The translations under genes were made by a program, and so were the position numbers. A stretch of DNA of 64,000 nt from a virus. The notes under the pieces are model-generated. The model had not been told where the DNA came from. It did no database searches and saw nothing but the letters and a program-made list of their open reading frames with translations. Shown here one piece after another: positions 19,301-41,565 of this stretch. How positions within the stretch are numbered: position 1 is the first letter of the stretch; the number at the start of each line of letters is the position of its first letter. The DNA is taken from positions 87,554 through 151,553 of IMG/VR virus record IMGVR_UViG_3300028045_001344; one strand, given 5' to 3'.

Positions 19301-21904
19301 AGATATTTTGGTATCAGATCTTTCTAAAACCGAACCAGTGAAATTAGTTCTATGAGCACCAACGTACATTCTCTTAGAAGATGATAAAAAGCTTTGACCG
19401 TCTGCGTATGACATAGTCCCGGTAATTCGAAATGAATTATCAGTGGAATCTAAGATATTATTATAACCTATAAATTCTACATCATAGGTGGTAGGAGTGG
19501 AGCCTAGAACAACATTGGGCCACTGGTAGTTTGTTGGCTTTACTTTTACTGCTATGTTCCACCTAGAGTTTTCATATACATCCTTTTGTAGACTACTGGT
19601 AAGTGTTGGGAAAACTCCGCCAGTGCTACTTGAAAGCATAAACTTGGCATCTTTATCATTTGCGGCTGGGCGAATTGCATATATTTGAAAGTTAGCAGTA
19701 TCCGGGGATAGCCAGGTCAGATCAGATTCCGTAGCACTTGGCGTGTGACAGCCACCCAAAGAGGAAGTAAGGAATGGGGTAGACCACCAGGAAATATTGT
19801 CAGGAGATACCTGCTTCGGAAAAAGAGATTCTAATTGAAAAGTCTGACCACGATAAATTTGATCAGCAGAAGAAGATATATAAGATAGTGATGAAGCATC
19901 CGATGTGCTTGATGTTTGAAAAACAGTAGCTTCCCAACTAGAAGTAGTATTAAAATTTGCGTATTCTTTACGAGTTATAGTAGATACATAATTTTCTTTA
20001 ATGTCATAAGTTACTTCATCTCCATAAAGATTTAGTTTGATTAATTCTTCGCCTACCCCATAACACCGTATTAGGTTACGAATAGATTTTTCTGCGCCTT
20101 TGGATTTGAAGATATAAACCAAATTATTATAGATGTTCTTGTAGATTCTATTTTTTGTATCATCCAGTTTTTCTGCAAAATTAAGAACATCATCACGATT
20201 TGCCAATGATTCTAATTCGGCAGCGTCAGCAAATAATTCTCCCACTGAAAGACCTGATGATTCTAAAAGCCTGTCCGCAAATGGAAGTGGCTTAAAACTA
20301 GAACTGATATAATCTACATCCTTAAGTCTGGGCAATCTTTCAGTTTGAAGCTGCAAAATATCAAAATAACTTCCCATCACTTGAATGAGTTTTAAAAGGG
20401 TGTGACGATCATTTACTGCGTCATCATCTCTGATCCAGCCTGGTAAGGAATTATAAATGGACGCATTATTATTTATATCATAATTGAACCCTTGCAATAG
20501 CAAATTTTCCAATGCCGCTGATACCAGTGGGTTGTATGAATATAAAATCGGATCTTTGAATTCTACTAAAGACGCACTAGATTCTACCATAGCAGAACCA
20601 GTATCTCGTGAGCCAATATTGTACCCCGTCCAAGCACCATTTGTTATACGACCAGAATAATCTAAAATTATTGCATCTGTATTTTCGACTGAAGCTGTAT
20701 TGATAATACCTTCGTTGAATTTGTAATAAACACCCAAATCAACGGGATTACTATAACTATATTTTGTGGGAGCATACCAATTTTCAGAAACATCGGTATT
20801 TGTTCCGCCGCCAACTTGCGTAAACCAATATTGACCAATCTGTTCAGAACTTCGTTTTGTTTTCCAAAACCTAAACTCATCCATGGAACCTGAAAGTTTT
20901 GCAAAGCCCAAGCCGCCCGTAACGGGTGTGTCTATGGTGGTGCCCATAGCGCCAATCCAACCCAGCATAGAGCCAGTAATTTCGCCAATACTTCCAGTAG
21001 ATATTGTGTCGTTGAGTTCACCATTGAGATAAAGTTTAGCTTCTAAATTTGCCCCATTATTGACAAAAGTAAAGGCATAGTGATTCCAAGTAGAACCAGT
21101 AAGATCAATGTTTTGACCGAGCTGCCCAAGATTAGAATCCAAAAACCCACCGGCAGTTCCCGACTGAAAGGCAACTGAAAACTGATGAGGCGTAATACTA
21201 AAATCACATTCAACACGAAAACGACCATAAGTGCCGCCAAGAGATGCACTATTCCATATATCAACAAATATCTGCTTGTCAGACTCAACCGGATCTCCGG
21301 TCCATCCATTCTTCTTGAACCAAAATTCTGCTGTGTTTCCAGCGGCGGCATTGAGTTCTAAATTAGATTGTTGATTAGTATCTTCGTCATAATAGTTGGC
21401 ATCAGGAACAGCACCTTGATGAGAATCAAAATATTGCGACAAAGAAGCATTAGGCACATTAGATGGATGAGGACCACCTTTGAAAGAAATATATTCATCT
21501 ACGGTAGGGGCTTCATAGCCACTAACACCACCCGGACCAACTCCACCATAATTTACACCAAGGTTTATATAGCCGGTTGTTCGGGGATATTCATTATCGT
21601 AAATATATTTATCAAAAGACGAACCACCATATAGCCACTCGGTTTGCTCTTTTTTGGAGCCATCATAAGGAAACTCGTTTCCAATATATGAGAAGGCATC
21701 AGTATAATATTGTTGTGCTGAGCCATACCGGGAAAAGTTGGCTGGCTCCGAAAAATCTATTTGTAAATCTACTTGATTCTTTAATTTAATAGTAGAATTA
21801 ACCCAGTCAGCGCCCTCGCCTTCGGGAGCCAAATCGTTCAGGCTTTTAGAAGCAAGAACTTTCTGGTTTTTATATAATTCAAATAGATCTTTAATATTCG
21901 ACAT
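10361..21904 (-). CDS. Giant baseplate-wedge/tail protein with two LamG (ConA-like) domains
   Basis: 3847 aa. LamG signatures at ~20820-21360 (TAEFW..WNHYAF..LYLNG..GSMDEFRFW) and ~15990-16600 (FSISLW..WHHIVAT..VYIDG..GALDEISFW). P2 gpI/T4 gp7-like motif KSKGAEKSIRNLIRCYG at ~20060-20110. Confidence 0.7.
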   Translation of the reverse strand: MSNIKDLFELYKNQKVLASKSLNDLAPEGEGADWVNSTIKLKNQVDLQIDFSEPANFSRYGSAQQYYTDAFSYIGNEFPYDGSKKEQTEWLYGGSSFDKYIYDNEYPRTTGYINLGVNYGGVGPGGVSGYEAPTVDEYISFKGGPHPSNVPNASLSQYFDSHQGAVPDANYYDEDTNQQSNLELNAAAGNTAEFWFKKNGWTGDPVESDKQIFVDIWNSASLGGTYGRFRVECDFSITPHQFSVAFQSGTAGGFLDSNLGQLGQNIDLTGSTWNHYAFTFVNNGANLEAKLYLNGELNDTISTGSIGEITGSMLGWIGAMGTTIDTPVTGGLGFAKLSGSMDEFRFWKTKRSSEQIGQYWFTQVGGGTNTDVSENWYAPTKYSYSNPVDLGVYYKFNEGIINTASVENTDAIILDYSGRITNGAWTGYNIGSRDTGSAMVESSASLVEFKDPILYSYNPLVSAALENLLLQGFNYDINNNASIYNSLPGWIRDDDAVNDRHTLLKLIQVMGSYFDILQLQTERLPRLKDVDYISSSFKPLPFADRLLESSGLSVGELFADAAELESLANRDDVLNFAEKLDDTKNRIYKNIYNNLVYIFKSKGAEKSIRNLIRCYGVGEELIKLNLYGDEVTYDIKENYVSTITRKEYANFNTTSSWEATVFQTSSTSDASSLSYISSSADQIYRGQTFQLESLFPKQVSPDNISWWSTPFLTSSLGGCHTPSATESDLTWLSPDTANFQIYAIRPAANDKDAKFMLSSSTGGVFPTLTSSLQKDVYENSRWNIAVKVKPTNYQWPNVVLGSTPTTYDVEFIGYNNILDSTDNSFRITGTMSYADGQSFLSSSKRMYVGAHRTNFTGSVLERSDTKISSVRYWMDYLEDSTILAHAKDPSNFGRKHPGENTFLNQPGNLFSEEVTKVPEIETLALQWDFAQVTGSDALGEFFVGDFSSGSTSAAAPYGDYGDLVKIKHPGKGFSFPASNADATIREFVYTAKQDSPEVINSSDMVQIRNDEDIEIFTRDTRPIRFFFTIEKSMNAIISAEMIKLFATVIDFNNLIGEPVNRYRQDYKSLEKMRQLFFERVQNSTMDFEKFVDYFKWIDDSMGKMVTQLFPASANFSPKVFSMIESHVLERNKYWNKFPTLEMKAKDPEAGLYGINEMMYPYKRGKAPIPLNQTSSCVWAHERAEAETFSSGDPIIDSQRNTFREANDWRPNSTPPTLTDIAGVTPVQYEGSTYALKNFTKPYRFKTKIMPELKGGTNVSKIKNLQYAHTELPFGTSTQLTISSSQVEDDIDCDDIINPNDKVKLRYKLTNNPISYASGDGDIFAPFDLYSSSVTTGYASAIPPMGATPKQIDLRNYHNDVYGGDYEIPAQGPFTEKYVGGWVHRHVPFPNTNCSPSTGSLATGSLAAECRPEAWNLGFDGSDLEITPRTTHQARSTILREPLAKRPVNIRNIKQTTGSTIIGNYSHEYEVLQTSGRKLNNRFFVKNGGFIPEYAASPWVVGLVDYKLPDFSKYGATKNIFVERFNAPGGPDVSSRGVLDLYAEEYAIRNELNQRNMVVRAPLNEWSMEHCGPFGIDPTGSPGDGTTPEQHAVRACCYTGTIGAYFKVNRNPKTLGALVGTSSTELTTSIQYDNWFVQHQIPRSELQYSWINASYDNTKAQPFGLLGSGDGGRSNFTVPSGALSTNAPMVQFTPSGSAYAFRSNLLDWDGSSWVPHYPSCDPHGGFFNSSSVNFTNAKGDPLTIGYLEPGTVSSVTPSIPGVFGPDGATGDFSISLWMMVTSSHDHPRVLMSRWKSTGGVAVDKGDCDWRLYIGSQTASAAAARNQIIFEVMDTDSGGTIRQHTSSVGLPGIVSGTWHHIVATFNTSTPVFPPYDWNLNVYIDGYEDPPTSYIASGRTTTVSSSTFIGAQKDKPVNYNNYYNFHSGALDEISFWYSTLTSASIHEIYNGGCPNDLSILPDTAENALQSWWRMGDTFGDSVNSSLGGYIADVYSLATPIYNAYSQAKYTSIVLDVPDVPCEYTASTGGFTASLDFVGLNTYINDPIVESQNLLSSSDSDYENRAFAYLCPRINPARDMLHALLLHRDGPYQYPSWKQIRTGETSIARYQKNNNIITVGSKDKILLTPLEKAAIFAADSSFPETPNWYKDSGSTAYYTEPPVTFKYNPLTTGLINQNPSLADGVARNSIPPVMIRNTFSNNLSFCANYGLTEDLGLGDYNTQTRRFGRTPQTQMHDLLRQQYQRNPDKFKFLKYSEWNYPRQIYTGLAENRGRTNYSETASVDFNGFAIASYGSNGIDRNSTYRRTFWKDDWLTRNRKLETLQEFGDNGNLLTGNFDFRTTLSSSLGYTDGWASSIWPMGTNKTFHNTASSDTLILATTYTSKTGGDFGELTRLNYDNLISVFNGEIIPSSSLYLSGNNHVGNVTCPITASSGYINFTDTSCGAQTIDYKWNGIGIGPWCCGWNHGFWDTSSAQTYLGSASCPGGTGSEGCYGCDFTTGIYTLYTVGNIGHYTFQPSGTIVPPGGPTPLVRFWCMRMGLQPSGSTYLASTSSACLATLGATCDTVCTSVVTGSNDYTMTFSIMVGAPDQTENAYDVGLWSYSAWVSSSVASIKTSHNGNNVCRFKSDSDSGPGTLDPETDRYRIMRNWNDQITSSVTGLPYTSVQVNLQREILFQRNTGSCWETFHREDVNTLHYNDTSVDGGPILDLTQSCVALNQSYYAVVDFSGSDVADTAYYKSASMTNFETNYEQSCPESSYWTASISYTYPAGFITNDTGYYTSSGGIYKDYGLMWNVTNERKRMVDMGLVTNSAGTPSLRYPSYNSYDEYAQDIRVMGKDYSIMPEFRMSSMMAKENPYATHTDFLELPGGKTTSSVSADGALNLDFIREYSNSDFLKEFDLLMDQQEDSEGWMSVGSLSLTCKGIKKLLPYDGFYPMSRTTQLSTLFADALDYSSSVGGRNLQLYKWDKAANCFVATTEEDYTSSETLNSIRKQGITTPFFAPGIVYNSIKSGVGVGWTVVTGTCLSDTYTLQNVNTSSVSGNLSGGDFLNTVVYKDPSIARKIDFETIYDMNKLFHKDPGKPSGTVDAAFHIDYPEALDGGFGLDLDCGLTGCSAQGENIDSPNQHFMLSWNGRNPENKISKYNQAMNNFLSECVRFFLRDPKNPETFNQGQLNYFESSPVVACHFVSGATYYMDVILEKTEAKPFTMCESGFSGDFSYTPSQFTAKDPVCRLPDFDEPCEYATWSLGPENTPPVDRSIYNTYSTFDGRYFGPATQKWKSIFNWSSASEGAHYNVSDPAQAPYTPPYYYGKSIARIKYTPGDEWTKQAFENTNPIDVFFEKMEIEFVNTELEEKIKLGNMNYVASTTSPSASVFEDTFSTSSFAYQMAQNVGDSINLKGIKNELKIQYDGVGKLISATNTYSPGKSRWIISSKFECPILDFSNQETQTLTVSGGLHPPTSLSSSGFLDQQPVRLGKGMWSGYGVRKGDSNFVTMGISKVDPAIISPTQIVDGVEISTSLINAFGFNNVSGQTSLHKEVGVLAKKRKISEAVVAIPFTGQANIPDTPGYLPGMASTANPAQMSSLYNMLNEGRNGEVNLFAIDRKRFDPYREAPPNAELPKNSITDMVKMMNEFVLPPSMDFVQNPGIDPFVMYIFKFEQELDQVDLQDIWQGVLPSIGVKAEIEDVTIKHSLLDSNEFFHKRRLPTDVRWLVFKIKKRATMEYSQVTQWNTDDVGGLVTPQPQPDFRSTGQTTFASPIPRIETKFSYNWPHDFYSLVELGKINTEVEFNKKLLPASTEVDPIGKSEGTGASNADQDQSRSEGTGAQSGDSGASSNDGTSHRGTFDPTGGQG

Positions 21905-25600: not shown

Positions 25601-28600
25601 TTAGTCACATTCATCTTTTCCGCTTGGATTAATTTCATTACTTGGTGAGCTTGGTTGCCCCGAACAATCATCCTTTCCGGTTAAATCCGGTCCGTTTAGC
25701 TTTTTAATATTACAGCGATCCCTCTTTTTCTGATCTGCTGTTTTCAACGCTCGTGATCCAGGGAGTTCTTCGTGTCCGAAAGCCGCAAGATATGCAGCAC
25801 CTAAACCAGTTATCGGAGGACCAACGCCTATACCAAGTGGAGGCACACCAAAAATATTAATAGGCAATAACCCAAATGATATAAGCAACAACGGAATATC
25901 AATCTCTGGTAAATTGAGAGCACATTCAGTGATCTGATTTTTTCTTATTTCTTCTTCACTTTGACCTTGTAATCTTCCAACAGAAGATTTTCCTCTATTA
26001 ATTGCTGACGTTAACGCTGGTCCTATCAACTCCATAGCATCTTTAATCTTCTTGGCTACAGCAATATTTGGATCAAAAGCCTCACCAGCACCCTTTAGTA
26101 TTCCCCAGAAAAACTGCTCTATTATTGAAAAATCAAAACCAGGAATGTCGGCACCATTTATAGCAGCATTTGCCTGTGCCTTATTAGTAAAGACAAGATC
26201 ACGCGACTTATAATCGCCACTGCTCGCAACAGAACTAAAAGACATCCTTAGTTGTTCTTTGGTTCCCAAGAATGCGTTATTTAGCCCAGGAAATGGAAGT
26301 GAATAAGTGATCCCATATAAAGCTGTCAAAGAAACCAAACGATCCATTGGAAAACAATAATCAAAAATAAAAGAGTATTCTGGTGTTTCTTTTATTTTGG
26401 TGACAAGTTCTGGATATACATTATTATATCCATCGCTAAAATAATTGGGATCGTTACGAATATCTGAAACTGATATATCTAAAGGAAGTTCTTTTTCCAC
26501 GCACACAATTGGTATCGTATAGGCGTCTATCCTTTCTGCATTGGCTTCTTCTTTATAGTGATAAGACTTATTTAGTTTTGTATTGTTGACATCATAATTA
26601 TTTTGCATAGCCTGGTGGATGGGTTGGCTCGTTATTCCCCTGGAATTGTCAGCCGTATCATTGACAACTTGACACACTAACCTCAATCCATACCTCAAGG
26701 ATTTAATATAACTCCCAAGTTTTTGGGGGTCTGGGGCAGTGGCGATCAGTGGGGCTAATTCTCCGGGAATGACAATTTCTTGTTCGGCGCAATCGTCGGC
26801 GGCAATAATCGTTGAATCCAAGCGGACTGGGGTGGTGGGAATGATGGGCATTGAGGTTTGGCTAAAGAACTCTCCGCTCATCCAAGTGCTAAATAAATTT
26901 TTATCCACAACACCTCTATTATCAAAAGGCAGATCCTCTGGTTGATAGGTGGGGGCATATTTGGGAGGAGGGAAAGCAGAAGTGGAGTCAACACTTTTAT
27001 TGTCTTTGTATTCCACTCTGATATATGTCTCAAGGTAAATATTTCCCTCACGCCAATCTTTTAAACCAATAATATCTTCTTTTGATGCCACGCCATAATC
27101 TCCAAGCCTAAAGTCTTGACCAAGCCTTTGAAGGGCGGGTTTGCGCAATATTCCAGCGTTCCCGGACTGAGGTGCCGAGGAGGATACATTAAATTGTGGC
27201 AACCAATGAAGGGGTGCTATTTGATTGGGAACCAACTCCGCTGAAAAAAGTAAATCATCTACTGCTTGGGGGGAAGATGGTAACGAAGCTAATTTCAATA
27301 TTTCAGTAACGGCATACGCTAATTCATTTTTTACAAACCAGTTAAAAGCTTTTCTCGGATCACTCAAATTATTTGGTGACTGATGTTGGGGCAAAGAATT
27401 ATAAGACTTTAAGCACTGACTCAAAAAAGAGTTCAAATAAAATTTAGCTTTGATTTCTTCAATAGCTTGAGTCGAAACATACTCTACAAAAACCTCGTCT
27501 ATGTCAGTTATGGACAATGCACTAAAAGTCGGGGCTGTTCTTATTATAGCTTCAAGCGCATACACTCGCGCCGTAGTTTGCACAAGACCATACAGTATGG
27601 ACTGCTCCAAAGCGTTATCTTTATTGGAGACTGTTCCACAAACATTAGGCATCGTGGGTTCGATACATTTTGTCATATCATAAACTTCTTTGAGTCTGTT
27701 TTTTATGCCCGTAAGATCTAATAAACTATTATCATTTCCTTCCTGTGATGGATCTGAACTTACGCATGGTTGCGGCGTTAGGTTTAGACTTTGAAAGACA
27801 TTATCTTCTAAAAGCTTTGATTTACTTACTTCAAACAAACACATAGCTTGCAAGCCCCTCAACAATTCATCATATAAGGTTCCAACTAATTCCCCTTGGT
27901 TTCCTGTGCTTAGAATGTTTTGTCCCTGGATTTGTAAAAGAGTGTTGGGATCTAGAGAGTGGGCGGAGGCTCCGCCAGGAGTTTGGATGATGTTACCAAT
28001 TGCGTTAGCATATCCTGGACGTTCTGAAATTGGTAATTTTCTTATTTCTCCCAAATCTTGAATTGTATATATGCTTTCTCCCAAATTCCAAGAATTACTC
28101 AAAAACTCTGCGAACCTTCTTTCTACTAAAGAAAAATCACTATTGGTCTTGGGTGGATGCGTGGGATCAAGAGGGGGAACATTTACAGGACTTAATTGAG
28201 TTTCGCCTAAACCCTTTTCCTCTATAACTTCTTGCGTTTTGATAGGTATGTCAGATTGTTGGAACCCTTTGGACCAAATAACATTTTGTTGTCCCGCTTG
28301 AATGGAAACGGCAAAGTTTTCTTTTCCAGTTATAGGTTCTTCTGAAAATTGAGTGTAAAACAAAGCGTAAGTGCTATCTCTAAATACATCGCCTAATATT
28401 CCATCGAGTGTTTGTTCGCTGTTCAGATCATCTGAAGAAGTGCCAAAGCCGCCCCAAGACTTTCTTAACTCATTTTTTACATAGTTTTTTACTTGATCAA
28501 TTTGACTTTGACCAGACGTAGGAGTAGAGAGCTTTGTGCTCAACGAGTCTTCTATAGTAAATTGTAATATTTTAGAACGTGAATTTAGAAGATCTCTACG

Positions 28601-31483
28601 ATCCCTGTTCTCCATAAAATCGTGGCCCGTGCGTAAACTGGTTTGAAACCTTGTATAAACGCCAACGTTCTTGTCGCCTTCTGTGTCTGCCATCCCAGGA
28701 AGAAACACGTTTTCAAAGGTTTGGGCTTTGATGGGGCTTGGGTTTGTGGTGTTATAGCGGAGAGTGTCTCGGCGGGCATCATCTGGGTTTTTTTTGTTGG
28801 ATTCCCAAAATGGCATTTGGCCCGTGGGTCGCTGACCCTGATCATAAAGCATACGAAATTCTGGGTTGATGATCTCCCGATTATTAACCGTGACTAATCG
28901 AGGAACGTCCTTTCCCTCGCCAAGCACCCTTGGTGATAAAAGACTTGGAACGGAGGAGACATCAGTAATAAACGAATTATAAATCCCATCAAAAGTTGTA
29001 TCAAGCACACGATCCATCATAAATGTATAAGAAGGATGATCCTGTTTGATTAGTCCTTCCACAAAATTACCATCAGCATCTATCGCACAATAAACTGGTG
29101 GGACAACTCCGTCTAACGGATCTTCTTTATCTAAAATTTCAGCAAGCTCATTGATGCGGCTTTTTGCTCGCTCGCGAGATGCATTTATTTGAGCATTACA
29201 AACTTCTAAACTTGTTATTCCTTTTCCTTCTAAAAGCTCACAGCGAAGAAAGTTATCATCTTCATCGCAAAGGCTTGTGGCAAGTATCGGCGTAAGATCT
29301 TCAAAATTGTCTATTTGTTTTTGTATTTCTTCTTCATCAACCAGTTTGCCAACGTTTCCAAAGAAATCGTTAATTTTATCTTCATCACCCAATAGGTCAC
29401 ATAAAGGACCATAAATCTCTGGGTTTATGGCACACATTTGATCGGCAGTAGATTGAACAATTTTTATTGTATCTTTTGTAGTTTTTCCCTGAAGCATTTT
29501 ATTTACTTCTCCGCAAGTGAGTGTGCTGCCAAGTGTATCCAGAAAGGAGCCAATAGGTGATTGTGTAATAGCCTGGGCTGTGGCTTGAGTTGCCTGTTGT
29601 ACCGCTTGTCCTGCTGCTTGCTGAACTTGTGACGCCGGTTGAGCCAATGGAGCTGTTAGTTTGTCCACTTGCTCATCTGTTACGTGAGATTGAAGATTAC
29701 TTAAAAATTTGCGTGATTGTTGAGAAATCCCTGGGGAAACAATACCGGCTTTCATGCCATCAAGTACGGCACCACCAACATTTTCTCCCATTACACCTAG
29801 CGTACCGGCAATTACGCCCGCAGTGTTTCCTTCACTAAGCATTTTGCCGATAGGAAGACTACCGAAATTTAACTTACATGGATCTCCGCAAGCCTCCAAA
29901 TACATCATTACAACTTGTTTGACCATTGATATAAGTGCTTTCTTGACTGCTTCTGCAATTGAAAGCAATATTTGTTCAACAATATCCCCCATGATATCGA
30001 CGGTGGGTATAATGTCGTCCAAACTTATAACAGGAATCTTTAATATTTTTACAACTTCACCCGCGAAGCGATTCACATCAAGCAAGAAGCTCTTTATCTC
30101 ATCTATGGGAAGATCTAGATTCAAGCATTCCACAGCAGCTTTCACGATATAGGTTATACCAAATTTATTCAAATAATGATAATAAACATCCTCAATACTG
30201 TTTATTGTATTGATTGTTTTATTCAGGTTTCCAATTACAGTATCGCCAACAAAATCTTTTGATTGTTTGCGAAACTCATTCATCTCTTTTTTTAATTCTT
30301 TAGACTTTAGTCTCCAAGATTCTTCACTTAAAGCTTTAGCATCTTTCGCAGAGTTTGAGTTAACTTTTTTTATCTCTGTTTCCATTTGAGCATTTTGATC
30401 TGGTGATCTCGGACGACCCACTGTATATTCAATTACTGGTGATGGAAATTTAATAAACTCAGTAATAAAAGTTTCCCAACCCATTGGTGGACTGCCGATG
30501 CCATCTTTTACTGTTGGTCGCTGTTGAGCTATTTGTGTTATTTTCTCTAAATGTTTATACAGATACATCGTGTTGCTTGTTATAAACATAGAATCACTAA
30601 ATGTACTAAAGCCAGCAGATAAATTCCGAAAGGAGTTTCCTTGATTTATTTGAGCATATTGTGGCAAATAGGCTGAACCTGTTAGTCCAGAACCCGACAT
30701 ACCCATCATAATAAGATCGGATTGAGATTCCGAGTAGAGATACCCATTTGTCCTAACTAGATCACGTAATACTGGTACAAACTCACGAAACCTCTCTGCT
30801 TCTTTCGCAAGATCGGCGTTATATACTTTTCCCTCAAAATCCATCATAACGCTATTATAATTTTCTAATAGTTGAGAAACCTTGGATACCTTTTTTTCTA
30901 GACCATAGGTGTTTAATTGAATCTCATCATAAACCGCAGGAGCCACAAATTTTTTCTCTGGAAGATTACTAAAAAGTGACTGGAAACGAAGATTGGATGA
31001 TTCTGGGGCTCCCACAGATGGAACACCACCAAATGCTGTAGATGTATCCAATTGAATTGAAGGATTAGAAAAGCTGTTGCTATAGTTCCCTGGAAGTATT
31101 TCTGGTATGGTTACTAATACTTTAATATTTGATGCAGGTCGCAAAGGAACATACAACCCCTGTGCTTCTTCTTCTGGTGTTCCGTTTTCTCCCGGTATAA
31201 TAACATCTGAAATTAATCCAGAAATAGTTTGGTCATCGGAGTCTTTATTATAAAAATCTAAAATAGAACGCAACCCTTCTTCTTTGTATGGCGACTTATC
31301 AGAAGGCACAAGATCATATTGAGCAATCCCAGTATCGACGGCAACACCATAATATCCTCCCACAGAACCAGACCGAGGGACAAAAAATGGTGTCTCACCT
31401 TCTGGCTTAGTCCAGTCTAATGAGATAAGAGGTTTTATATTCCGCCCGACTCGTTCAGTGTTTTTTTGATTAGCGTTAGACAT
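25601..31483 (-). CDS. Very large, largely helical hypothetical virion protein
   Basis: 1960-aa ORF between the spike and gp25-like genes; Q/A low-complexity patch; no family recognised. Confidence 0.5.
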   Translation of the reverse strand: MSNANQKNTERVGRNIKPLISLDWTKPEGETPFFVPRSGSVGGYYGVAVDTGIAQYDLVPSDKSPYKEEGLRSILDFYNKDSDDQTISGLISDVIIPGENGTPEEEAQGLYVPLRPASNIKVLVTIPEILPGNYSNSFSNPSIQLDTSTAFGGVPSVGAPESSNLRFQSLFSNLPEKKFVAPAVYDEIQLNTYGLEKKVSKVSQLLENYNSVMMDFEGKVYNADLAKEAERFREFVPVLRDLVRTNGYLYSESQSDLIMMGMSGSGLTGSAYLPQYAQINQGNSFRNLSAGFSTFSDSMFITSNTMYLYKHLEKITQIAQQRPTVKDGIGSPPMGWETFITEFIKFPSPVIEYTVGRPRSPDQNAQMETEIKKVNSNSAKDAKALSEESWRLKSKELKKEMNEFRKQSKDFVGDTVIGNLNKTINTINSIEDVYYHYLNKFGITYIVKAAVECLNLDLPIDEIKSFLLDVNRFAGEVVKILKIPVISLDDIIPTVDIMGDIVEQILLSIAEAVKKALISMVKQVVMMYLEACGDPCKLNFGSLPIGKMLSEGNTAGVIAGTLGVMGENVGGAVLDGMKAGIVSPGISQQSRKFLSNLQSHVTDEQVDKLTAPLAQPASQVQQAAGQAVQQATQATAQAITQSPIGSFLDTLGSTLTCGEVNKMLQGKTTKDTIKIVQSTADQMCAINPEIYGPLCDLLGDEDKINDFFGNVGKLVDEEEIQKQIDNFEDLTPILATSLCDEDDNFLRCELLEGKGITSLEVCNAQINASRERAKSRINELAEILDKEDPLDGVVPPVYCAIDADGNFVEGLIKQDHPSYTFMMDRVLDTTFDGIYNSFITDVSSVPSLLSPRVLGEGKDVPRLVTVNNREIINPEFRMLYDQGQRPTGQMPFWESNKKNPDDARRDTLRYNTTNPSPIKAQTFENVFLPGMADTEGDKNVGVYTRFQTSLRTGHDFMENRDRRDLLNSRSKILQFTIEDSLSTKLSTPTSGQSQIDQVKNYVKNELRKSWGGFGTSSDDLNSEQTLDGILGDVFRDSTYALFYTQFSEEPITGKENFAVSIQAGQQNVIWSKGFQQSDIPIKTQEVIEEKGLGETQLSPVNVPPLDPTHPPKTNSDFSLVERRFAEFLSNSWNLGESIYTIQDLGEIRKLPISERPGYANAIGNIIQTPGGASAHSLDPNTLLQIQGQNILSTGNQGELVGTLYDELLRGLQAMCLFEVSKSKLLEDNVFQSLNLTPQPCVSSDPSQEGNDNSLLDLTGIKNRLKEVYDMTKCIEPTMPNVCGTVSNKDNALEQSILYGLVQTTARVYALEAIIRTAPTFSALSITDIDEVFVEYVSTQAIEEIKAKFYLNSFLSQCLKSYNSLPQHQSPNNLSDPRKAFNWFVKNELAYAVTEILKLASLPSSPQAVDDLLFSAELVPNQIAPLHWLPQFNVSSSAPQSGNAGILRKPALQRLGQDFRLGDYGVASKEDIIGLKDWREGNIYLETYIRVEYKDNKSVDSTSAFPPPKYAPTYQPEDLPFDNRGVVDKNLFSTWMSGEFFSQTSMPIIPTTPVRLDSTIIAADDCAEQEIVIPGELAPLIATAPDPQKLGSYIKSLRYGLRLVCQVVNDTADNSRGITSQPIHQAMQNNYDVNNTKLNKSYHYKEEANAERIDAYTIPIVCVEKELPLDISVSDIRNDPNYFSDGYNNVYPELVTKIKETPEYSFIFDYCFPMDRLVSLTALYGITYSLPFPGLNNAFLGTKEQLRMSFSSVASSGDYKSRDLVFTNKAQANAAINGADIPGFDFSIIEQFFWGILKGAGEAFDPNIAVAKKIKDAMELIGPALTSAINRGKSSVGRLQGQSEEEIRKNQITECALNLPEIDIPLLLISFGLLPINIFGVPPLGIGVGPPITGLGAAYLAAFGHEELPGSRALKTADQKKRDRCNIKKLNGPDLTGKDDCSGQPSSPSNEINPSGKDECD

Positions 31484-35344: not shown

Positions 35345-36355
35345 TTATGCTTCATTGACATATAATAGATTCTTAATTCTTTCTGGTTCCCAGAAACCTT
35401 TATACCATAGTTTATCACTTAACTGATCTTTTTTTAAATCTTCTTTCATTGTATCAAGGATAAGATTTTCATAATGGTATAAGTATAATTCTTTGCCGTA
35501 GTACATCACACGTCGATCTTGTTCGTTTGCTCTGAGACATAAATCAACATCCTGATACGAAGCTTTAAGAGATGGACAAAAGCCACCGCTTTTCATATAC
35601 CACTCCGCGTCTATGATCAAAAAGGCGGCTGTTATAAACAATTCGCCTTTGTCGCAATTTACTTTTGGATCGTCCTTGGGATAACCTCGAAACATGTGTA
35701 AGGCAAATAATCCGGCTTCTCCTGGTCTTGGTCCAAACATCGAGCCAGCGTATTGAACCTTGTCTGCTCTATCGGGCTTATGATATAAAAAATCTTTGGT
35801 AGGATAAAGGAGCTTGGTTCCTGTGATTGTATTTTTGTTTTCAGTGTGCTTCTTATAAAGCACTGGTAACATCTCTGGATTATTTGTCCATAGATCTGAA
35901 CTCCACAAAATAATATCTTTTAGGTTTGGTGATTTCGTTTTCAGGGCGTGAGTTGCGAGATTGTGCAGCATTGAAAAATTAAATTGATTTGCGGTGTTAT
36001 CTACCCGCATATATGAACAGTCGCTTTCAAGAGCAATCGTTTTAATATGTTCTGTCTCTGAACGATCATCAACTATTAAGACGTTTGCAAAATCAAAAAT
36101 TTTGTTCTGCTTCATATTGTTCAAAGTAAATTGCAAAAGTTCTGCATTGTCCTTTATGCAAAGGAGGATGTGTGGTTTTTTATAATCGGTAGTTTCGGCT
36201 TCAATAAACTGACACTTGTATTCATTGGAAGTCGTTTTTAGATTATACGAATTAGAATAGAAGCTTTTTACCACATCATCTTCAGACTGTGTTACAGTGA
36301 ATTTGGATGGATTAATTTTCTTTTTAAAATTGTATACGTGTGTATGATTATTCAT
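35345..36355 (-). CDS. GT2-family glycosyltransferase
   Basis: LIVDDRS, FNFS..HN, LWSSD, GTKLLYP, YQDVDLCLR, YHYE. Start moved to ATG 36355 (RBS GAGGAG, overlaps the upstream stop). Confidence 0.8.
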   Translation of the reverse strand: MNNHTHVYNFKKKINPSKFTVTQSEDDVVKSFYSNSYNLKTTSNEYKCQFIEAETTDYKKPHILLCIKDNAELLQFTLNNMKQNKIFDFANVLIVDDRSETEHIKTIALESDCSYMRVDNTANQFNFSMLHNLATHALKTKSPNLKDIILWSSDLWTNNPEMLPVLYKKHTENKNTITGTKLLYPTKDFLYHKPDRADKVQYAGSMFGPRPGEAGLFALHMFRGYPKDDPKVNCDKGELFITAAFLIIDAEWYMKSGGFCPSLKASYQDVDLCLRANEQDRRVMYYGKELYLYHYENLILDTMKEDLKKDQLSDKLWYKGFWEPERIKNLLYVNEA

Positions 36356-38279
36356 TTTGCTCCTCAATGTAATATTTTTCTATATCATCTAAGACTTCTT
36401 TTGTATCCTCAAGGGTTTGATTCCCCAGTTGAGCACTTGGCTCCATTACGCACCCCTCTCCCCATTCATTCCATGAATTCATAAAAAGAAAGTTTTCAGA
36501 TTCATCAGGATTATCTTCGAGTAACGTATTATGTAACTGTTTCATTAGATAAAGCTTATATACTTCTCTTGATGTGCTAGAAAAAACATTAGCTTCAGAC
36601 TTTGAGCGTCTAGGGGTGTTATCCCAACCTGGGAAGAAGCCATTATAATAAGAGATATTTGCTTTGCGAACTTTTTCTCCTAATGTTGTATCTCGAATGG
36701 GAACATTTTTAGACCAGTTGATTAGTGTCTTTTGATTTCCTTTTGCCATAGTCATCTGATCGTAAAGGGCTTCTTTGTCAAAAATCGTAGAAACTCCTTT
36801 CCAATGTTCCAAAACTGATAAAGATTGATTGTGCCCCGAGAAATTAGGTTGAAATTCACACACACCATCCACACCATTAAATATCTCAGTTTCAAAATTC
36901 CCCAAACACTGAATTATGTAAATCCCATTCCAGCCTTGTTCCACGGCTCTAGTGTTCCACCACTCTATCATTTGAGGAAAAGGTTTAATATGCGGGGCGC
37001 GGTAAATTAAGAAAACAGGTTTATTGTTTATTTTTATATAATTCTTATGATTGAAGAAATGGAACAAATATTTAAAATGCTCATCCCACTCATTTATATT
37101 GCCATAACGTTGCTCAACCAGAACTTTGTCCTCTTTTCCATCCCAGTTTTTTGTCCAAGGTTCATTCGCCCAATTAAGACAAAAGGGTAGATCAGGTTCC
37201 CCATCTTTCAGCATTTTCTCCAAAGGCTTATATAACGCCCGACGGCCATTGAACCAATAATGATGATAACAAAATCCATAAACGCCCGCTTCTTTTGCCA
37301 AACGTGCTTGCAGCGCACGAGTTTCTTTATTCATTAGATCGTAATAGCCCAAAGCTGAGTGTGGATTCAAAAACTTTTGGTTATTAAACTTTGGCTTGGC
37401 TTTCCTTAGATTATCCCATTCAGTAAATCCGTCGCCCCATAAAATATCATTTAAATCCGATTGGTGATATTGAGGAAAATAAAAAGAAATAATTTTTGGC
37501 TTTGAGGTGGCAACCTTTTTGATGGGAAGAAGAAACAATGTGTATTTCATATGACGAACAATGGCGGAGAAAAATCTCTCGAAAGCATGAGCCATTGTCC
37601 CGTCTAGTGGTGGGGAGCCTTGAAAACTTTCAAAATTATTTAAATCACACGTATGCTTTTTAAAAAAGTTTAAAATATCTCCACGTACCCAGAACATTGT
37701 ACCTGCCACAAAACTCTTGGACTGAGGGTATGAAGCTTTGGGGCTGATTTTATATTTTTTACATAACTTTTCATAGTTTGCTTCGTTTGCGCCCATATCT
37801 TGGCACACATAATTTGCACAAGAAATCATCCCAACATCATGCTTCTGTTTGAAAATATCTACTATCTCTTGGATGCGCTCTGGGGTTCCTAAGAGAGTAT
37901 CTAATAAATCTTTCGTCCATTGATCCCCGGCTACTTCAAAAGGGTTGGTATTGTGTTTGCCCTTCTTAGTGTGAATTTTACATATATAATCATATCTTTT
38001 TTTAAGATTATTCGCGTGGTTTGCGGAGACTGTAAAGCCACCGGGGTCCATTCCCTTGTTTTGGGAAATAGTATAGTAGAAATTATCGCCTTTCAGGTTT
38101 TGATATAGTTCGATTATTTTAGATATGTTACGTGAATTTTGTAGGCCGTCTTTTGTGTCGCGGCTAAAATTTACATACAGATCATATTCGAAAGGGATGT
38201 TTTCTAAATATGTATTGATTTGAGGTAACACATCCAAGTGAAAGGCGTGTATAAAAACGGCAACTTTTGGTGAATTCAT
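36348..38279 (-). CDS. Fusion: RgpF (rhamnan synthesis F)-like domain plus WbsX/GH99-like domain
   Basis: N-terminal half: VAVFIHAF, KIHTKK, FVAGTMFWVR, DGTMAHAFER. C-terminal half: FYFPQYH, GFTEW, GFCYHHYWF, WANEPW, PGWDNTPR, NSWNEWGEG. Confidence 0.85.
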   Translation of the reverse strand: MNSPKVAVFIHAFHLDVLPQINTYLENIPFEYDLYVNFSRDTKDGLQNSRNISKIIELYQNLKGDNFYYTISQNKGMDPGGFTVSANHANNLKKRYDYICKIHTKKGKHNTNPFEVAGDQWTKDLLDTLLGTPERIQEIVDIFKQKHDVGMISCANYVCQDMGANEANYEKLCKKYKISPKASYPQSKSFVAGTMFWVRGDILNFFKKHTCDLNNFESFQGSPPLDGTMAHAFERFFSAIVRHMKYTLFLLPIKKVATSKPKIISFYFPQYHQSDLNDILWGDGFTEWDNLRKAKPKFNNQKFLNPHSALGYYDLMNKETRALQARLAKEAGVYGFCYHHYWFNGRRALYKPLEKMLKDGEPDLPFCLNWANEPWTKNWDGKEDKVLVEQRYGNINEWDEHFKYLFHFFNHKNYIKINNKPVFLIYRAPHIKPFPQMIEWWNTRAVEQGWNGIYIIQCLGNFETEIFNGVDGVCEFQPNFSGHNQSLSVLEHWKGVSTIFDKEALYDQMTMAKGNQKTLINWSKNVPIRDTTLGEKVRKANISYYNGFFPGWDNTPRRSKSEANVFSSTSREVYKLYLMKQLHNTLLEDNPDESENFLFMNSWNEWGEGCVMEPSAQLGNQTLEDTKEVLDDIEKYYIEEQNE

Positions 38280-38677
38280 TTCTCCAAGTATTTTACCACT
38301 TTATCATGAATTTTTGAATCAACATTTTCTTTCCACGAATCATCCTCGTTATTTATTTGATTGCGAATTTGTGTTGCCGAAATAAAGCCAATATCTTTCG
38401 GTGGAACATGTTCAACAATTCCATATCCAACTCCGCGTCCATAATTGACCGATTCAATATCTGGTATGGATAAAATTTCAACATCGTCATCGGCATACGC
38501 AGTTTCTAGCATATCAATAGTTTGCTCAGTTGTAAATGGATTTTTTTCATCAGGAGGAATATCTCTTACGCAAATAAGAACAGGCACTCCTTGATTTAGT
38601 TTTTGACCGATAAGCCATTTGTGACCATTGTGTAAAGGTTGCCACCTACCTATAAACATTGCTCTTTTGTTATTCAT
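38276..38677 (-). CDS. Small HIGH-superfamily nucleotidyltransferase; candidate minimal ATP sulfurylase
   Basis: 133 aa; FIGRWQPLHNGH, YGRGVG, ISATQIR; in the same operon as cysC and the sulfotransferases. Confidence 0.75.
   Translation of the reverse strand: MNNKRAMFIGRWQPLHNGHKWLIGQKLNQGVPVLICVRDIPPDEKNPFTTEQTIDMLETAYADDDVEILSIPDIESVNYGRGVGYGIVEHVPPKDIGFISATQIRNQINNEDDSWKENVDSKIHDKVVKYLEK
38356..38404. repeat. Direct repeat (3' part of the nucleotidyltransferase gene); second copy at 39870..39918
   Basis: Core tgtgttgccgaaataaagccaatatcttt(c/g)ggtgg is 34/35 identical. Confidence 0.9.
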
Positions 38678-39042
38678 TTATTTTCTCCTTGTTCAATGAA
38701 ATCAATTGTTTTGTGCCATGCGTTCGGATCTGTTTTATCGAACCTGATAGCATGGTCATCAATATAATATTTGGCTGGTTGTTTGATGTTTGTAACATCA
38801 TCAAAGAAATGAGATAAATTATATTTTTCCAGCCACTTCCTAATAGGTTTAACTGGTCGGCTTGATACTATTATCAAACGATAGCCAGCATCCTTTAGCT
38901 TTTGTAAAGAAGGAATAGAGCCTGGCATTGGTGGATCGTAAGCATTATCTAGACCTTGAAATCCTTTGGAATATTGATGAATGACTCCATCAAAATCTAT
39001 TGCAATAGTATTGTTTTTAAATTCTGTTCCAACTTCCTTCAT
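38674..39042 (-). CDS. Small capless HAD-superfamily phosphatase (intact copy)
   Basis: 122 aa; motif I DFDG, motif II VSSR, motif III K, motif IV YIDD. Confidence 0.8.
   Translation of the reverse strand: MKEVGTEFKNNTIAIDFDGVIHQYSKGFQGLDNAYDPPMPGSIPSLQKLKDAGYRLIIVSSRPVKPIRKWLEKYNLSHFFDDVTNIKQPAKYYIDDHAIRFDKTDPNAWHKTIDFIEQGENK
38771..39042. repeat. 272-bp direct repeat (HAD gene); second copy at 39911..40182
   Basis: Ungapped alignment at offset 1140; about 31 mismatches by hand count (~89% identity), mostly synonymous. Confidence 0.95.
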
Positions 39043-39818
39043 CTTATATCCTCAATCGAATATTTATAACATTCTATGTCTTCCCTATATTTTTTATTAA
39101 CCAAAGAAATACATTTATCATTATAAAAGCATATATCAGGCGGAAGTGCATTATGTGGCAAATCTGACCATTTCCAACAAGAGACATTTTTTTTCCACTC
39201 AATGTCCTTCGTAGCAAAACGTCCGGTCATATAATTCATCTCTCTCAGGATGTTGGGATCAAAAGAAGTCCCAAAGGATATATTGACTTTGCTTATATCT
39301 TTTTCAATTTGTTCCAATTTACACACATGATCAAAGAAGTTTTCATATTTATCTTCTATAGATCTTTTTTGCGGTTGCCAATGTTGATCATCCTTTTTCT
39401 TATTACTTATGACCTCTAAAAATTCCACAAAGGACAAATCATCGCCCAAATTATTACGACCTGATATTTGCTTCTTGCGCCCGAACGCATGTCGATAAGA
39501 ACTTACAGCCCGACTAAAAGGATTTCTTACTATTTTTAGCGTTAAAATTTGTGGTGATAACACTTCGTCTAAAAATAAAGGCTTGACTTTTGTTTTATAA
39601 TATTCGTGATTACGGTACTTGTGAATCCAAATATATTTTTTTAAAGCATATTCTAAAACACCAATTTCCTTGTAAAACATTAACATCACTAAGACACTTC
39701 CACACTTCGCATTCCAATCTATAAAAATTTTTTTTTCAAAATCATAGAGAGGGGGCGGTCCACCAAGCCATGGAAATATTTTTTGACGCGGATTATAAAA
39801 AACTTCTCTACCCTTCAT
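39039..39818 (-). CDS. Sulfotransferase, Sulfotransfer_2 (carbohydrate sulfotransferase) type
   Basis: 5'-PSB WNAKCGS, 3'-PB VRNPFSRAVSSY, LSFVEFL, HWQPQ. Start moved to ATG 39818 (RBS AAGGGG). Confidence 0.85.
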   Translation of the reverse strand: MKGREVFYNPRQKIFPWLGGPPPLYDFEKKIFIDWNAKCGSVLVMLMFYKEIGVLEYALKKYIWIHKYRNHEYYKTKVKPLFLDEVLSPQILTLKIVRNPFSRAVSSYRHAFGRKKQISGRNNLGDDLSFVEFLEVISNKKKDDQHWQPQKRSIEDKYENFFDHVCKLEQIEKDISKVNISFGTSFDPNILREMNYMTGRFATKDIEWKKNVSCWKWSDLPHNALPPDICFYNDKCISLVNKKYREDIECYKYSIEDIR

Positions 39819-40182
39819 CTTGTTCCCCTTGAATATAAAGCTGATTTTGAATGGTTGACCACAATGGGTTTTGATTGTAAATATGTGTTGCCGAAATAAA
39901 GCCAATATCTTTGGGTGGTTGTTTGATGTTTGTAACATCATCAAAAAAATGAGATAAATTATATTTCTCTAGCCAATTCCTAATAGGTTTAACTGGTCGG
40001 CTTGATACTATTATCAAACGATAGCCTTCATCCTTTAGCTTTTGTAAAGAGGGGATGGCACCGGGCATTGGTGGATCATATGCATTGTCCAATCCCTGAA
40101 ATCCTTTAGAATACTGATGAATAACGCCGTCAAAATCTATTGCAATAGTATTATTTTTGAATTCTGTTTTAACTTCAATCAT
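39808..40182 (-). pseudogene. Chimeric HAD copy lacking motif IV, fused in frame to a nucleotidyltransferase fragment
   Basis: Matches 38674..39042 up to TNIKQP, then continues PKDIGFISAT from 38276..38677; YIDD is lost. Confidence 0.7.
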
Positions 40183-40849
40183 TTAATATTACCAATTTCC
40201 CATATACCTTTTCTTCTATTTTAGACCAAGCAGGATTATTTTTGTATATGGTGTTGATATCCTCTTGTGTAAACCACTCGTTAAGATTTTTTTTATATTT
40301 CTTGTTCTTTACGTTTACATTTGCTTTAATACTTTTAATTTTCTTTTTTCTATCTTCATCAATTTCCGTAAAATTACTTGCAACCTTGATAAAATCTTCT
40401 GCCAGATAATCAGTCCGTATCCAATAATCAACTTCGTGAGAACTGAAGGAGGCGAGCCATTCATCTCCTGTGTGGATTTTGAACAACTTACCATCGGAAT
40501 GAATCTGCTTGATTTTTCCTTGTCTCAGAAACTCGTATTGTTCTTCATCGAAAGGTTGTTTTATGTTATTTAGACCATAAGTATCAAAATGAAAACACCA
40601 ACTTAAAATCCAATATGGTAGTGGGCGTATATTTAAGATCTTCTTTTTGTTGGAGAAATCTTTACCAAGATTCTCTGCCATGTAATTAAATCCAGCATGT
40701 TGAATTCCTATGTGCTTATGTTTCTTCGGAATTGGAGTGTGTCCATTATAATATTTTATCAGTGATGGAAACAATAAAAACATATCGGCGGTCGATGACC
40801 CCGCAGTTTTTGGTATATGACCCCATACAAATTTTTCTCCATATATCAC
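40175..40849 (-). CDS. Sulfotransferase-family protein
   Basis: 224 aa; HIPKTAGSS (5'-PSB) and IRPLPYWILSW (3'-PB-like). Confidence 0.75.
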   Translation of the reverse strand: MIYGEKFVWGHIPKTAGSSTADMFLLFPSLIKYYNGHTPIPKKHKHIGIQHAGFNYMAENLGKDFSNKKKILNIRPLPYWILSWCFHFDTYGLNNIKQPFDEEQYEFLRQGKIKQIHSDGKLFKIHTGDEWLASFSSHEVDYWIRTDYLAEDFIKVASNFTEIDEDRKKKIKSIKANVNVKNKKYKKNLNEWFTQEDINTIYKNNPAWSKIEEKVYGKLVILND

Positions 40850-40854
40850 TCTAC

Positions 40855-41565
40855 TTAAGTGTTTTTTGTAATGAAATTTTCTAATTGTTCAACCGACATT
40901 TCCAAACTTAATTCATTTGTATCAATTACTAAATCAGGGCATTCAGGTTCTTCGAACGGATCTGAAATGCCTGTAAAATTTTGTATCTCACCCGATAATG
41001 CTTTGGCGTATAATCCTTTGACATCACGTTCAATGCATTTCTCTACAGGACATTTTATGAAAACAGTTAGTGCTCCGCAAGTTTTCTCAAGTTCTTCTCT
41101 TAGATCCTCATAGGGATTGATTGCCGACATAATTGTAACAACATTATTACGCGAAAGAACTTTCCCAACAAAACCCAATCTTCGAATATTAGTATTTCGG
41201 TCTTCTTTCGAAAATCCCAAATCCTTACATAAACCTTCCCGATATTCATCCCCATCAATAATCTCTACCTTGAATCCCTTTGTCTTTAATTTTTTTTCAA
41301 CTGCCCGAGCAAGAGTTGTTTTTCCGGCTCCCGACAATCCTGTCATTTGTATAAACATACCTTTTGTTTTACCCCACTTAATAAAATTCCATAATCGTTC
41401 ATGAAGAAAGAACATAAACACCTGAATAGTATTATAGCATAAAGCTATCAAACTTGTAGATTTAATATTACCTGTAGTTATAAAGGCAACCGCGACTAGA
41501 ATAATAATGGCAATCAAACGCCATGTTATTGCTTTCCAAAAGCTTCTTTGTCTTGAATCAATCAC
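40855..41565 (-). CDS. cysC: Adenylyl-sulfate (APS) kinase with an N-terminal DUF2061-like membrane domain
   Basis: TGLSGAGKTT, DGDEYR, LGFSKEDR..NIRR, RDVKGLY, FTGISDPFEEP. N-terminal RSFWKAITWR..HERLW..IKWG. Confidence 0.92.
   Translation of the reverse strand: MIDSRQRSFWKAITWRLIAIIILVAVAFITTGNIKSTSLIALCYNTIQVFMFFLHERLWNFIKWGKTKGMFIQMTGLSGAGKTTLARAVEKKLKTKGFKVEIIDGDEYREGLCKDLGFSKEDRNTNIRRLGFVGKVLSRNNVVTIMSAINPYEDLREELEKTCGALTVFIKCPVEKCIERDVKGLYAKALSGEIQNFTGISDPFEEPECPDLVIDTNELSLEMSVEQLENFITKNT

Follow-up and report, generated by a model that had tools for sequence, protein, structure and literature searches.

A 133-residue nucleotidyltransferase linked to APS kinase in an uncultured myovirus: a candidate third type of ATP sulfurylase

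The stretch analysed here, referred to as the window, comprises 64,000 nucleotides of viral DNA (positions 87,554 to 151,553 of the IMG/VR record IMGVR_UViG_3300028045_001344) and carries on its minus strand an operon in which sugar-nucleotide and glycosyltransferase genes stand together with an adenosine 5'-phosphosulfate (APS) kinase, a sulfotransferase and a small nucleotidyltransferase of 133 amino acids. This nucleotidyltransferase belongs to the HIGH superfamily and is considered below as a candidate ATP sulfurylase, the putative source of the APS that the kinase would convert into 3'-phosphoadenosine 5'-phosphosulfate (PAPS). The source record (151.5 kilobases (kb), ~83% complete) represents an uncultured myovirus, whose baseplate wedge protein is only ~30% identical to its counterparts in Microcystis and Flavobacterium phages, and no match was found when the operon was searched as DNA against cultured phages. 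The candidate and the genes around it are the following.

35345..36367, minus strand: probable GT2-like glycosyltransferase (weak NCBIfam glycosyltransferase matches, no Pfam match)
36348..38279, minus strand: two-domain glycosyltransferase, RgpF + WbsX (PF14307, 5e-102; PF05045, 2e-31), coupled downstream of the focal gene
38276..38677, minus strand: focal gene, HIGH-superfamily nucleotidyltransferase of the GRxVGY family, candidate ATP sulfurylase
38674..39042, minus strand: small HAD-family phosphatase (PF00702, 4.5e-7; PF13419), translationally coupled to the focal gene
39039..39944, minus strand: sulfotransferase (Sulfotransfer_2), a PAPS user (PF03567, 3.9e-13; phrog_3347 galactose-3-O-sulfotransferase, 6e-6)
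39808..40182, minus strand: chimeric HAD remnant, made of the 5' part of a second HAD copy and a 49-nucleotide fragment of the nucleotidyltransferase gene (PPKDIGFISAT...)
40175..40849, minus strand: 224-amino-acid protein with a HIPKTAGSS motif in its translation, candidate second sulfotransferase
40855..41565, minus strand: APS kinase (CysC; PF01583, 2.1e-53, residues 68-215) with an N-terminal DUF2061 membrane segment (PF09834, 1.3e-11, residues 11-60)

The operon opens upstream with GDP-fucose and dTDP-rhamnose genes, followed by a methyltransferase, a GSCFA protein and the DUF2061-APS kinase; downstream of the kinase come, in order, the 224-amino-acid protein, the HAD remnant, the Sulfotransfer_2 gene, the HAD gene, the focal gene and the two glycosyltransferases. 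The focal open reading frame (ORF) runs from ATG to stop on the minus strand, and the plus strand over the same interval is closed by many stops. A preliminary description, made from the sequence alone, had reported this ORF without its strand, together with the motifs GRWQPLHNGH, YGRGVG and ISATQIR; these lie at residues 10-19, 79-84 and 99-105, respectively, and are conserved across the family. The focal gene shares 4 nucleotides at its start with the stop of the HAD gene (38674-38677) and another 4 at its own stop with the start of the adjoining glycosyltransferase gene (38276-38279), which places it in a translationally coupled operon. The APS kinase lies ~2.2 kb upstream in the same operon. 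Since an APS kinase and a sulfotransferase are both identified by Pfam in the window, APS formation is the only step lacking a known enzyme, as the preliminary description had held, and the whole 151.5 kb record contains no match to PF01747 (Sat) or PF01507 (CysD/CysH).

The focal protein (P0001) has a single Pfam match, CTP_transf_like (2e-6), and belongs to a family of ~130 amino acids with the signature GRxQPxHxGH, R38-D39, GRxVGY, ISATxIR and W115, every element of which it contains. Across 184 aligned family domains, G10, R11, Q13, P14, H16, G18, H19, G80, R81, V83, G84, Y85, S100, T102, I104 and R105 are each at least 91% conserved, and R38, P47, D73, I99, A101 (~90%) and W115 reach about 90% or more, followed by N46 (89%) and D39 (~86%). 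The conserved positions are kept equally in stand-alone members and in members fused to APS kinase. Because they are near-invariant across the 184 domains, the motifs of the focal protein are not chance occurrences. The GRxVGY motif separates the family loci examined (L001-L027) from true archaeal nicotinamide mononucleotide (NMN) adenylyltransferases (NMNATs; L028-L032), which are without it, and two family-specific invariant arginines stand at the C-terminal ends of strands beta2 and beta3. The family is large, with ~8000 near-length matches, mostly marine, and 423 clusters at 50% identity (E<=1e-10). Its members carry the public name "cytidyltransferase-like protein" or, for the fusions and by transfer, "adenylyl-sulfate kinase", and the ESM Atlas gave generic "cytidyltransferase" clusters only, mostly viral. 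A literature search found no description of the GRxVGY family, an absence there being no proof of absence elsewhere.

Several comparisons place the focal protein within the HIGH superfamily. Its best NCBIfam matches are NMNAT models, all far under their cut-offs: PRK01153 at 49.2 bits against 127, TIGR01527 at 36.8 against 181, and the NadM-Nudix models at no more than 41 bits against >350. Among solved structures, the top sequence match is the Methanocaldococcus jannaschii NMNAT MJ0541 (PDB 1f9a; E = 1.5e-4 with the single sequence, 1.3e-14 with the family profile), followed in order by the M. thermautotrophicus NMNAT (MTH150), NadM and phosphopantetheine adenylyltransferase (PPAT). The same PDB search, taken to E<=10 with both the single sequence and the family profile, returned no ATP sulfurylase, and the focal protein has no match to PF01747 at E<=0.01. 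A profile-profile comparison (hhalign) with five Sat sequences from a sister clade gave a probability of 1.4% and an alignment confined to residues 4-73, in which the sulfate-binding Q195, R197 and N198 of Sat fall on G10, W12 and Q13 of the focal protein. CysD is likewise not recognized, with no PF01507 or TIGR02039 match in Pfam or NCBIfam.

Structural comparison gave the same ranking. An AlphaFold (AF2) model built with 53 family members as input (predicted local distance difference test score 93.7, predicted template modelling score 0.86) has three long strands only (6-10, 33-39 and 66-72) and a well-ordered loop at 73-100. In an all-against-all structural search, the NMNAT 1f9a ranked first (Z 12.8 over 128 residues), ahead of the PPAT 4nah (Z 12.0) and NadM (Z 11.1-11.3), and Foldseek agreed. 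These adenylyltransferase matches span model residues 1-133. Sat catalytic domains scored Z 6.5-9.5 (1v47_B 9.5 over 125 amino acids, 3cr8 8.7, 2gks 8.2, 4maf 7.2, 1x6v 7.1), and the cytidylyltransferases TagD, HldC and Fom1 matched more weakly (Z 6-7.4), over only ~90 residues. The focal protein is thus a HIGH-superfamily member outside the Sat family, with NMNATs as its nearest kin.

The preliminary description had proposed a miniature Sat, in which GRGVG echoed the Sat loop. This identity was rejected: no Sat appears in the PDB sequence search, the hhalign probability is 1.4%, the sulfate-binding residues of Sat are absent and the fold lies nearer to NMNAT, PPAT and NadM. The supposed echo is not supported either: the GRDHAG motif of Sat is absent, residues 80-85 reading GRGVGY, and hhalign leaves this region unaligned to GRDHAGVG. 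The motif kinship suggested at the same time stood in its NadM half, the NadM-type GRFQPxHxGH and ISxTxxR being present, and fell in its Sat half, QxRNPxHxxH being missing.

The difference from NMNATs is concentrated in one segment. When the family profile is aligned with MJ0541, positions 8-78 fall on residues 5-76 and positions 83-131 on residues 109-155, so that ~32 NMNAT residues (MJ0541 77-108) are replaced by four, 'YGRG'. The missing segment is presumably the helix-beta4-helix stretch of which the NMN pocket is made, and its loss would leave room only for a small acceptor. Motifs, fold and deletion were each computed directly. The ATP-handling half has been kept and the large-acceptor pocket has gone, which, together with the new arginines, would fit a small anionic acceptor.

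The linkage of the family to APS kinase was also computed directly. Natural fusions to CysC, for which the preliminary description had proposed a search, are abundant: ~200 longer relatives that are 53-71% identical across the whole query also carry PF01583 (APS_kinase), and among 142 length-unbiased representatives at 50% identity at least 42 (~30%) are such fusions, split 28 to 14 between the two domain orders. Pfam resolves both orders, kinase-nucleotidyltransferase in P0138, P0173, P0181 and P0233 and nucleotidyltransferase-kinase in P0157. A same-strand APS kinase accompanies the gene in 77 of 80 viral loci, mostly abutting or overlapping it and in 4 cases fused to it; one of the three remaining loci ends at a contig edge. 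In phage contigs 76% identical to the present one, the DUF2061-APS kinase gene lies 13 base pairs upstream of the nucleotidyltransferase, the rest of the cluster being different. Cellular neighbourhoods extend the picture, with the order Sulfotransfer_3, APS kinase, nucleotidyltransferase in a Chitinophagaceae locus (L013), a CysQ-type Inositol_P phosphatase gene adjoining the module in a Methanosarcinales archaeon (L015) and a Bacteroidota genome (L009), and sulfatases on the flanks of an APS kinase-nucleotidyltransferase fusion in Planctomycetota (L018). The neighbourhoods of a stand-alone member on a complete chromosome (L001) and of the fusion P0141 held no informative partners.

Further arrangements were observed among fused and distant members. 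Other natural fusions join the nucleotidyltransferase to Sulfotransfer_2 (P0142, 360 amino acids), to HAD (P0122, 255 amino acids) and to a cupin/mannose-6-phosphate-isomerase-like domain (P0124, 247 amino acids). On a 539 kb Saprospiraceae contig (L087), an APS kinase-nucleotidyltransferase fusion apparently shares an operon with Sulfotransfer_3, a fatty-acid desaturase and a protein of the LGT family, a hint that the product sulfated there could be a lipid and not a glycan. Family members ~35% identical to the focal protein, with GRGVGY or GRDVGY intact, occur in SAR11 and SAR86 single-cell genomes and related metagenome-assembled genomes (MAGs; L020-L027), either as host genes or as phage DNA inside the sorted cells. 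Six of these eight loci place the gene directly after a P-loop kinase that is short and divergent and matches the APS-kinase profile at E ~1e-9. Of the other two, L024 has the gene fused to a clear APS-kinase domain (2e-39) and L022 ends at a contig edge. Cultured siphophages, namely the Xylella phages Sano and Salvo (KF626665/KF626668), Bacata (LR743524) and relatives infecting Xanthomonas and Stenotrophomonas, encode a 230-amino-acid 'kinase' (phrog_10255) whose N-terminal half matches P-loop/APS kinases and whose C-terminal half matches the nucleotidyltransferase family at 32-38% identity.

The distribution of the family, computed directly as well, is complementary to that of the known sulfurylases. 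Eighteen family-bearing cellular genomes from ~9 lineages were searched, many of them MAGs or single-amplified genomes (SAGs); the set comprised three single-chromosome assemblies, other MAGs of the GTDB phylum of assembly G001, Bacteroidota, Marinimicrobia, Omnitrophota, Methanosarcinales, marine group II, Planctomycetota, SAR11 and SAR86. Sat was found in 0 of the 18 and CysD over cut-off in 0 of the 18, and APS kinase was present in 17. A canonical sat or cysDN elsewhere in the genome, which would have spoken against the proposed function, was thus found neither in these genomes nor in the phage record. Among the 120 genomes of the G001 phylum, 78 carry the nucleotidyltransferase family, 18 Sat, 15 CysD and 9 none of the three; no genome carries two of them (Fisher p ~1e-21, the clades not being independent). 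A strong APS kinase is found in 74 of the 78 genomes with the family and in 15 of the 18 with Sat. A replicate in the phylum of G006, from which 151 genomes were sampled, gave Sat or CysD in 0 of 4 family genomes versus 92 of 147 others, a consistent result of low power. Furthermore, five family-bearing genomes (the single-chromosome G001, G002 and G004, together with G093 and G115) were all found to encode a CysH-like reductase as well as a sulfite reductase; with APS kinase present and no known sulfurylase, their pathway lacks only a recognised sulfurylase. The same five genomes carry canonical NadD and CoaD over cut-off, and the nucleotidyltransferase is therefore not needed as an NMNAT or a PPAT.

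Altogether, the focal protein is best read, with a probability of about 70%, as a minimal, non-orthologous ATP sulfurylase of a third type that feeds the phage APS kinase and sulfotransferases. That it would fill the APS-forming step is well supported by the fusions, the adjacency to APS kinase and the absence of Sat and CysD. The proposed reaction is ATP + sulfate -> APS + pyrophosphate. The enzyme would derive from a NadM/archaeal NMNAT-like adenylyltransferase, related to Sat only through the HIGH/Rossmann-like superfamily and not to CysDN. During this change the ATP-binding machinery (GRxQPxHxGH and ISATxIR) would have been retained, the ~32-residue NMN-binding helix/beta4/alphaD segment lost, and the basic and aromatic residues R38, G80-R81-x-V-G-Y85 and W115 gained, which would hold a small anion. 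ATP would be bound as in NMNAT through HxGH and ISATxIR. We infer that the second substrate is sulfate, held by family-specific residues, for which R38, R81 and the GRxVGY backbone are candidates, and positioned to attack the alpha-phosphate. The phage APS kinase with its predicted membrane anchor, as the proposed consumer of the APS, would form PAPS for use by the Sulfotransfer_2 enzyme and perhaps by the 224-amino-acid protein; the sulfated target may be a glycan that the glycosyltransferase and sugar-nucleotide genes on either side serve to build. Without assistance, the sulfurylase reaction is very unfavourable. This would explain the near-constant fusion or coupling of the family to APS kinase, and it may explain the frequent attachment of a HAD protein, a possible pyrophosphatase or phosphatase of 3'-phosphoadenosine 5'-phosphate (PAP); in the phage, the coupled HAD may remove pyrophosphate or PAP.

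Comparison with known systems helps to delimit the proposal. The reaction would be the same as that of Sat (PF01747; 1v47, 1j70) and of the Sat-CysC/PAPS synthases (2gks, 1x6v). Sat and the focal family share the HIGH/Rossmann-like fold over ~125 residues, a superfamily-level feature only, as well as HxxH after beta1 and recurrent APS-kinase fusion in both orders. The focal protein differs in having GRWQ for the QxRN of Sat, in lacking GRDHAG and the PUA-like N-terminal and C-terminal domains of Sat, and in its length of 133 versus ~390 amino acids. NadM/archaeal NMNATs (MJ0541, 1f9a; TIGR01527, PRK01153) share GRxQPxHxGH, NPFT and ISxTxIR with the family, whereas R38-D39, GRxVGY, W115 and the replacement of ~32 residues are the family's own, and in genomes it is found with APS kinase and sulfotransferases rather than with NAD genes. 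CysDN apparently occupies the same pathway slot and is never found together with the family in the genomes searched, but it has an unrelated fold (CysD being a PAPS-reductase-like ATP pyrophosphatase) and is GTPase-coupled. A further analogy is offered by PPAT and dephospho-CoA kinase in the bifunctional CoA synthase, where the product of a small HIGH adenylyltransferase is phosphorylated at its ribose 3'-OH by a P-loop kinase acting next; PPAT is the second-best fold match of the focal protein, yet its substrate and pathway differ.

Several observations weigh against a sulfurylase. The energetic cost of the reaction would be a heavy demand on a 133-residue enzyme without GTP coupling, and, with the sulfate-binding residues of Sat absent, any sulfate site is hypothetical. 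The mutual exclusion in the G001 phylum may reflect only ~3 clades and hence few independent events, and gene absence is uncertain where so many genomes are MAGs or SAGs. In addition, hundreds of kb separate the nucleotidyltransferase from APS kinase in G001, G002 and G004, all three single-chromosome assemblies, and its neighbours in L001 are housekeeping genes. Finally, ~2.2 kb lie between gene and kinase in the window itself, where the gene is coupled to a HAD and a glycosyltransferase instead, an arrangement that, taken alone, would suggest sugar activation.

The distance between nucleotidyltransferase and kinase has a probable local cause. Direct repeats of 290 nucleotides (38767-39056 and 39907-40196, 87% identical) and 49 nucleotides (38356-38404 and 39870-39918, 92%) identify the remnant at 39808..40182, by its sequence, as the scar of a duplication of the HAD-nucleotidyltransferase unit that was later partly deleted around the sulfotransferase gene. 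This duplication and deletion is probably why the gene is not adjacent to the APS kinase in the window, and the scar suggests that the sulfotransferase-HAD cassette between the two was inserted secondarily.

A non-catalytic or regulatory role has to be weighed against the sulfurylase proposal. The protein would then be an APS-, PAPS- or ATP-binding module that acts as a scaffold, oligomeriser or regulator of APS kinase, with APS drawn from another source or from the host. A regulatory subunit would show equally tight fusion and adjacency to the kinase, and there is precedent for such a partner in the APS kinase of Thiobacillus denitrificans, which carries an inactive Sat-like domain; one of the structural matches, 3cr8, is a hexameric APS kinase that bears a Sat-like domain. 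Even so, such a role is unlikely, as the catalytic residues of HxGH and ISxTxxR are 91-99% conserved in fused and stand-alone members alike, the stand-alone gene is kept far from the kinase in G001, G002 and G004, and the source of APS in genomes without Sat and CysD would be left unexplained.

In a second alternative, the enzyme would work with the HAD and glycosyltransferases to activate a glycan precursor that is small and either phosphorylated or anionic (for example a phosphonate or the phosphate of a sugar or of glycerol), its link to APS kinase being indirect. Pairs of HAD and nucleotidyltransferase are typical of nucleotide-sugar pathways, which fits the coupling of the gene in the window to the HAD and the RgpF/WbsX glycosyltransferase rather than to the kinase, and TagD, HldC and Fom1 are among the weaker fold matches. 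These neighbours are missing in related phages, however, while APS kinase adjacency is near universal, and the fusion partners are APS kinases, not sugar enzymes. The five genomes named above pair the gene with assimilatory sulfate genes, L001 lacks a glycan context, and the cytidylyltransferase matches cover only ~90 residues, all of which makes a precursor-activating enzyme improbable. An NMN or nicotinic acid mononucleotide adenylyltransferase for phage NAD salvage would accord with the top sequence and fold matches and with the many phages that encode a NadM-type NMNAT, but it is scarcely credible given NCBIfam scores far under cut-off (49 versus 127 and 37 versus 181 bits), the missing NMN-binding segment, the lack of GRxVGY in true NMNATs, the NadD already present in family-bearing genomes and the linkage to APS kinase with zero NAD-pathway neighbours. 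The NMNAT and PPAT identities were both rejected on the scores, the missing segment, the presence of NadD and CoaD, and GRxVGY.

The sulfurylase proposal can be extended, with slightly less assurance though still as the probable case, to the family as a whole. In this broader form, the family would constitute a third, evolutionarily independent ATP sulfurylase, the smallest known (~130 amino acids), derived from NMNAT and replacing Sat or CysDN in whole lineages, and it would give marine phages a self-contained PAPS pathway for glycan sulfation. The lineages concerned would be the 78 of 120 genomes in the G001 phylum (Thermodesulfobacteriota/Dadabacteria-type MAGs) together with some Marinimicrobia, Bacteroidota, Omnitrophota, Planctomycetota, Methanosarcinales and marine group II archaea, and possibly SAR11 and SAR86. 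The usual teaching is that sulfate activation has two enzyme solutions, Sat and CysDN, and a 2018 comparative study of archaeal sulfate assimilation (PMC6286981) states explicitly that there are two non-homologous ATP sulfurylases. If the proposal is true, a third enzyme solution for sulfate activation stands beside them, and the scoring of sulfur assimilation in metagenomes changes, since genomes that are at present scored as incomplete, or as incapable of using sulfate, become complete. Thousands of "cytidyltransferase-like" proteins would also gain a function, as would the extra domain found in many "adenylyl-sulfate kinases", and marine phages would be seen to bring a whole PAPS supply line for the sulfation of surface glycans. 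In addition, enzymatic PAPS regeneration would have a very small enzyme at its disposal, and the family would be a clean case of new substrate specificity gained through deletion of the NMNAT substrate-binding insert.

The remaining genes of the operon are compatible with roles around the same pathway. Weak NCBIfam matches of the HAD protein at 38674..39042 include PpaX pyrophosphatase and heptose bisphosphate phosphatase, and it may act as a PAP 3'-phosphatase or as a pyrophosphatase that pulls the sulfurylase reaction. The interval given for the sulfotransferase (39039..39944) is the longest ORF, and translation probably starts at an internal methionine near 39818, directly past the stop of the upstream HAD remnant. 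Although the 224-amino-acid protein has zero matches in Pfam, NCBIfam and PHROG, its HIPKTAGSS motif resembles a 5'-phosphosulfate-binding loop, and it may be a divergent sulfotransferase. The RgpF/WbsX protein would belong to the glycan pathway whose product is likely to be sulfated. The DUF2061 portion of the APS kinase is a predicted membrane segment, through which phage PAPS synthesis may be anchored to the membrane, and the same DUF2061-APS kinase fusion is kept in related phage contigs (L081-L086).

Beside the baseplate genes, the window also holds two very large minus-strand ORFs, at 10361-21904 (3847 amino acids) and 25601-31483 (1960 amino acids). Both probably encode fibre or host-recognition proteins, and Laminin_G_3 is present in the ORF that corresponds to the second in related phage contigs.

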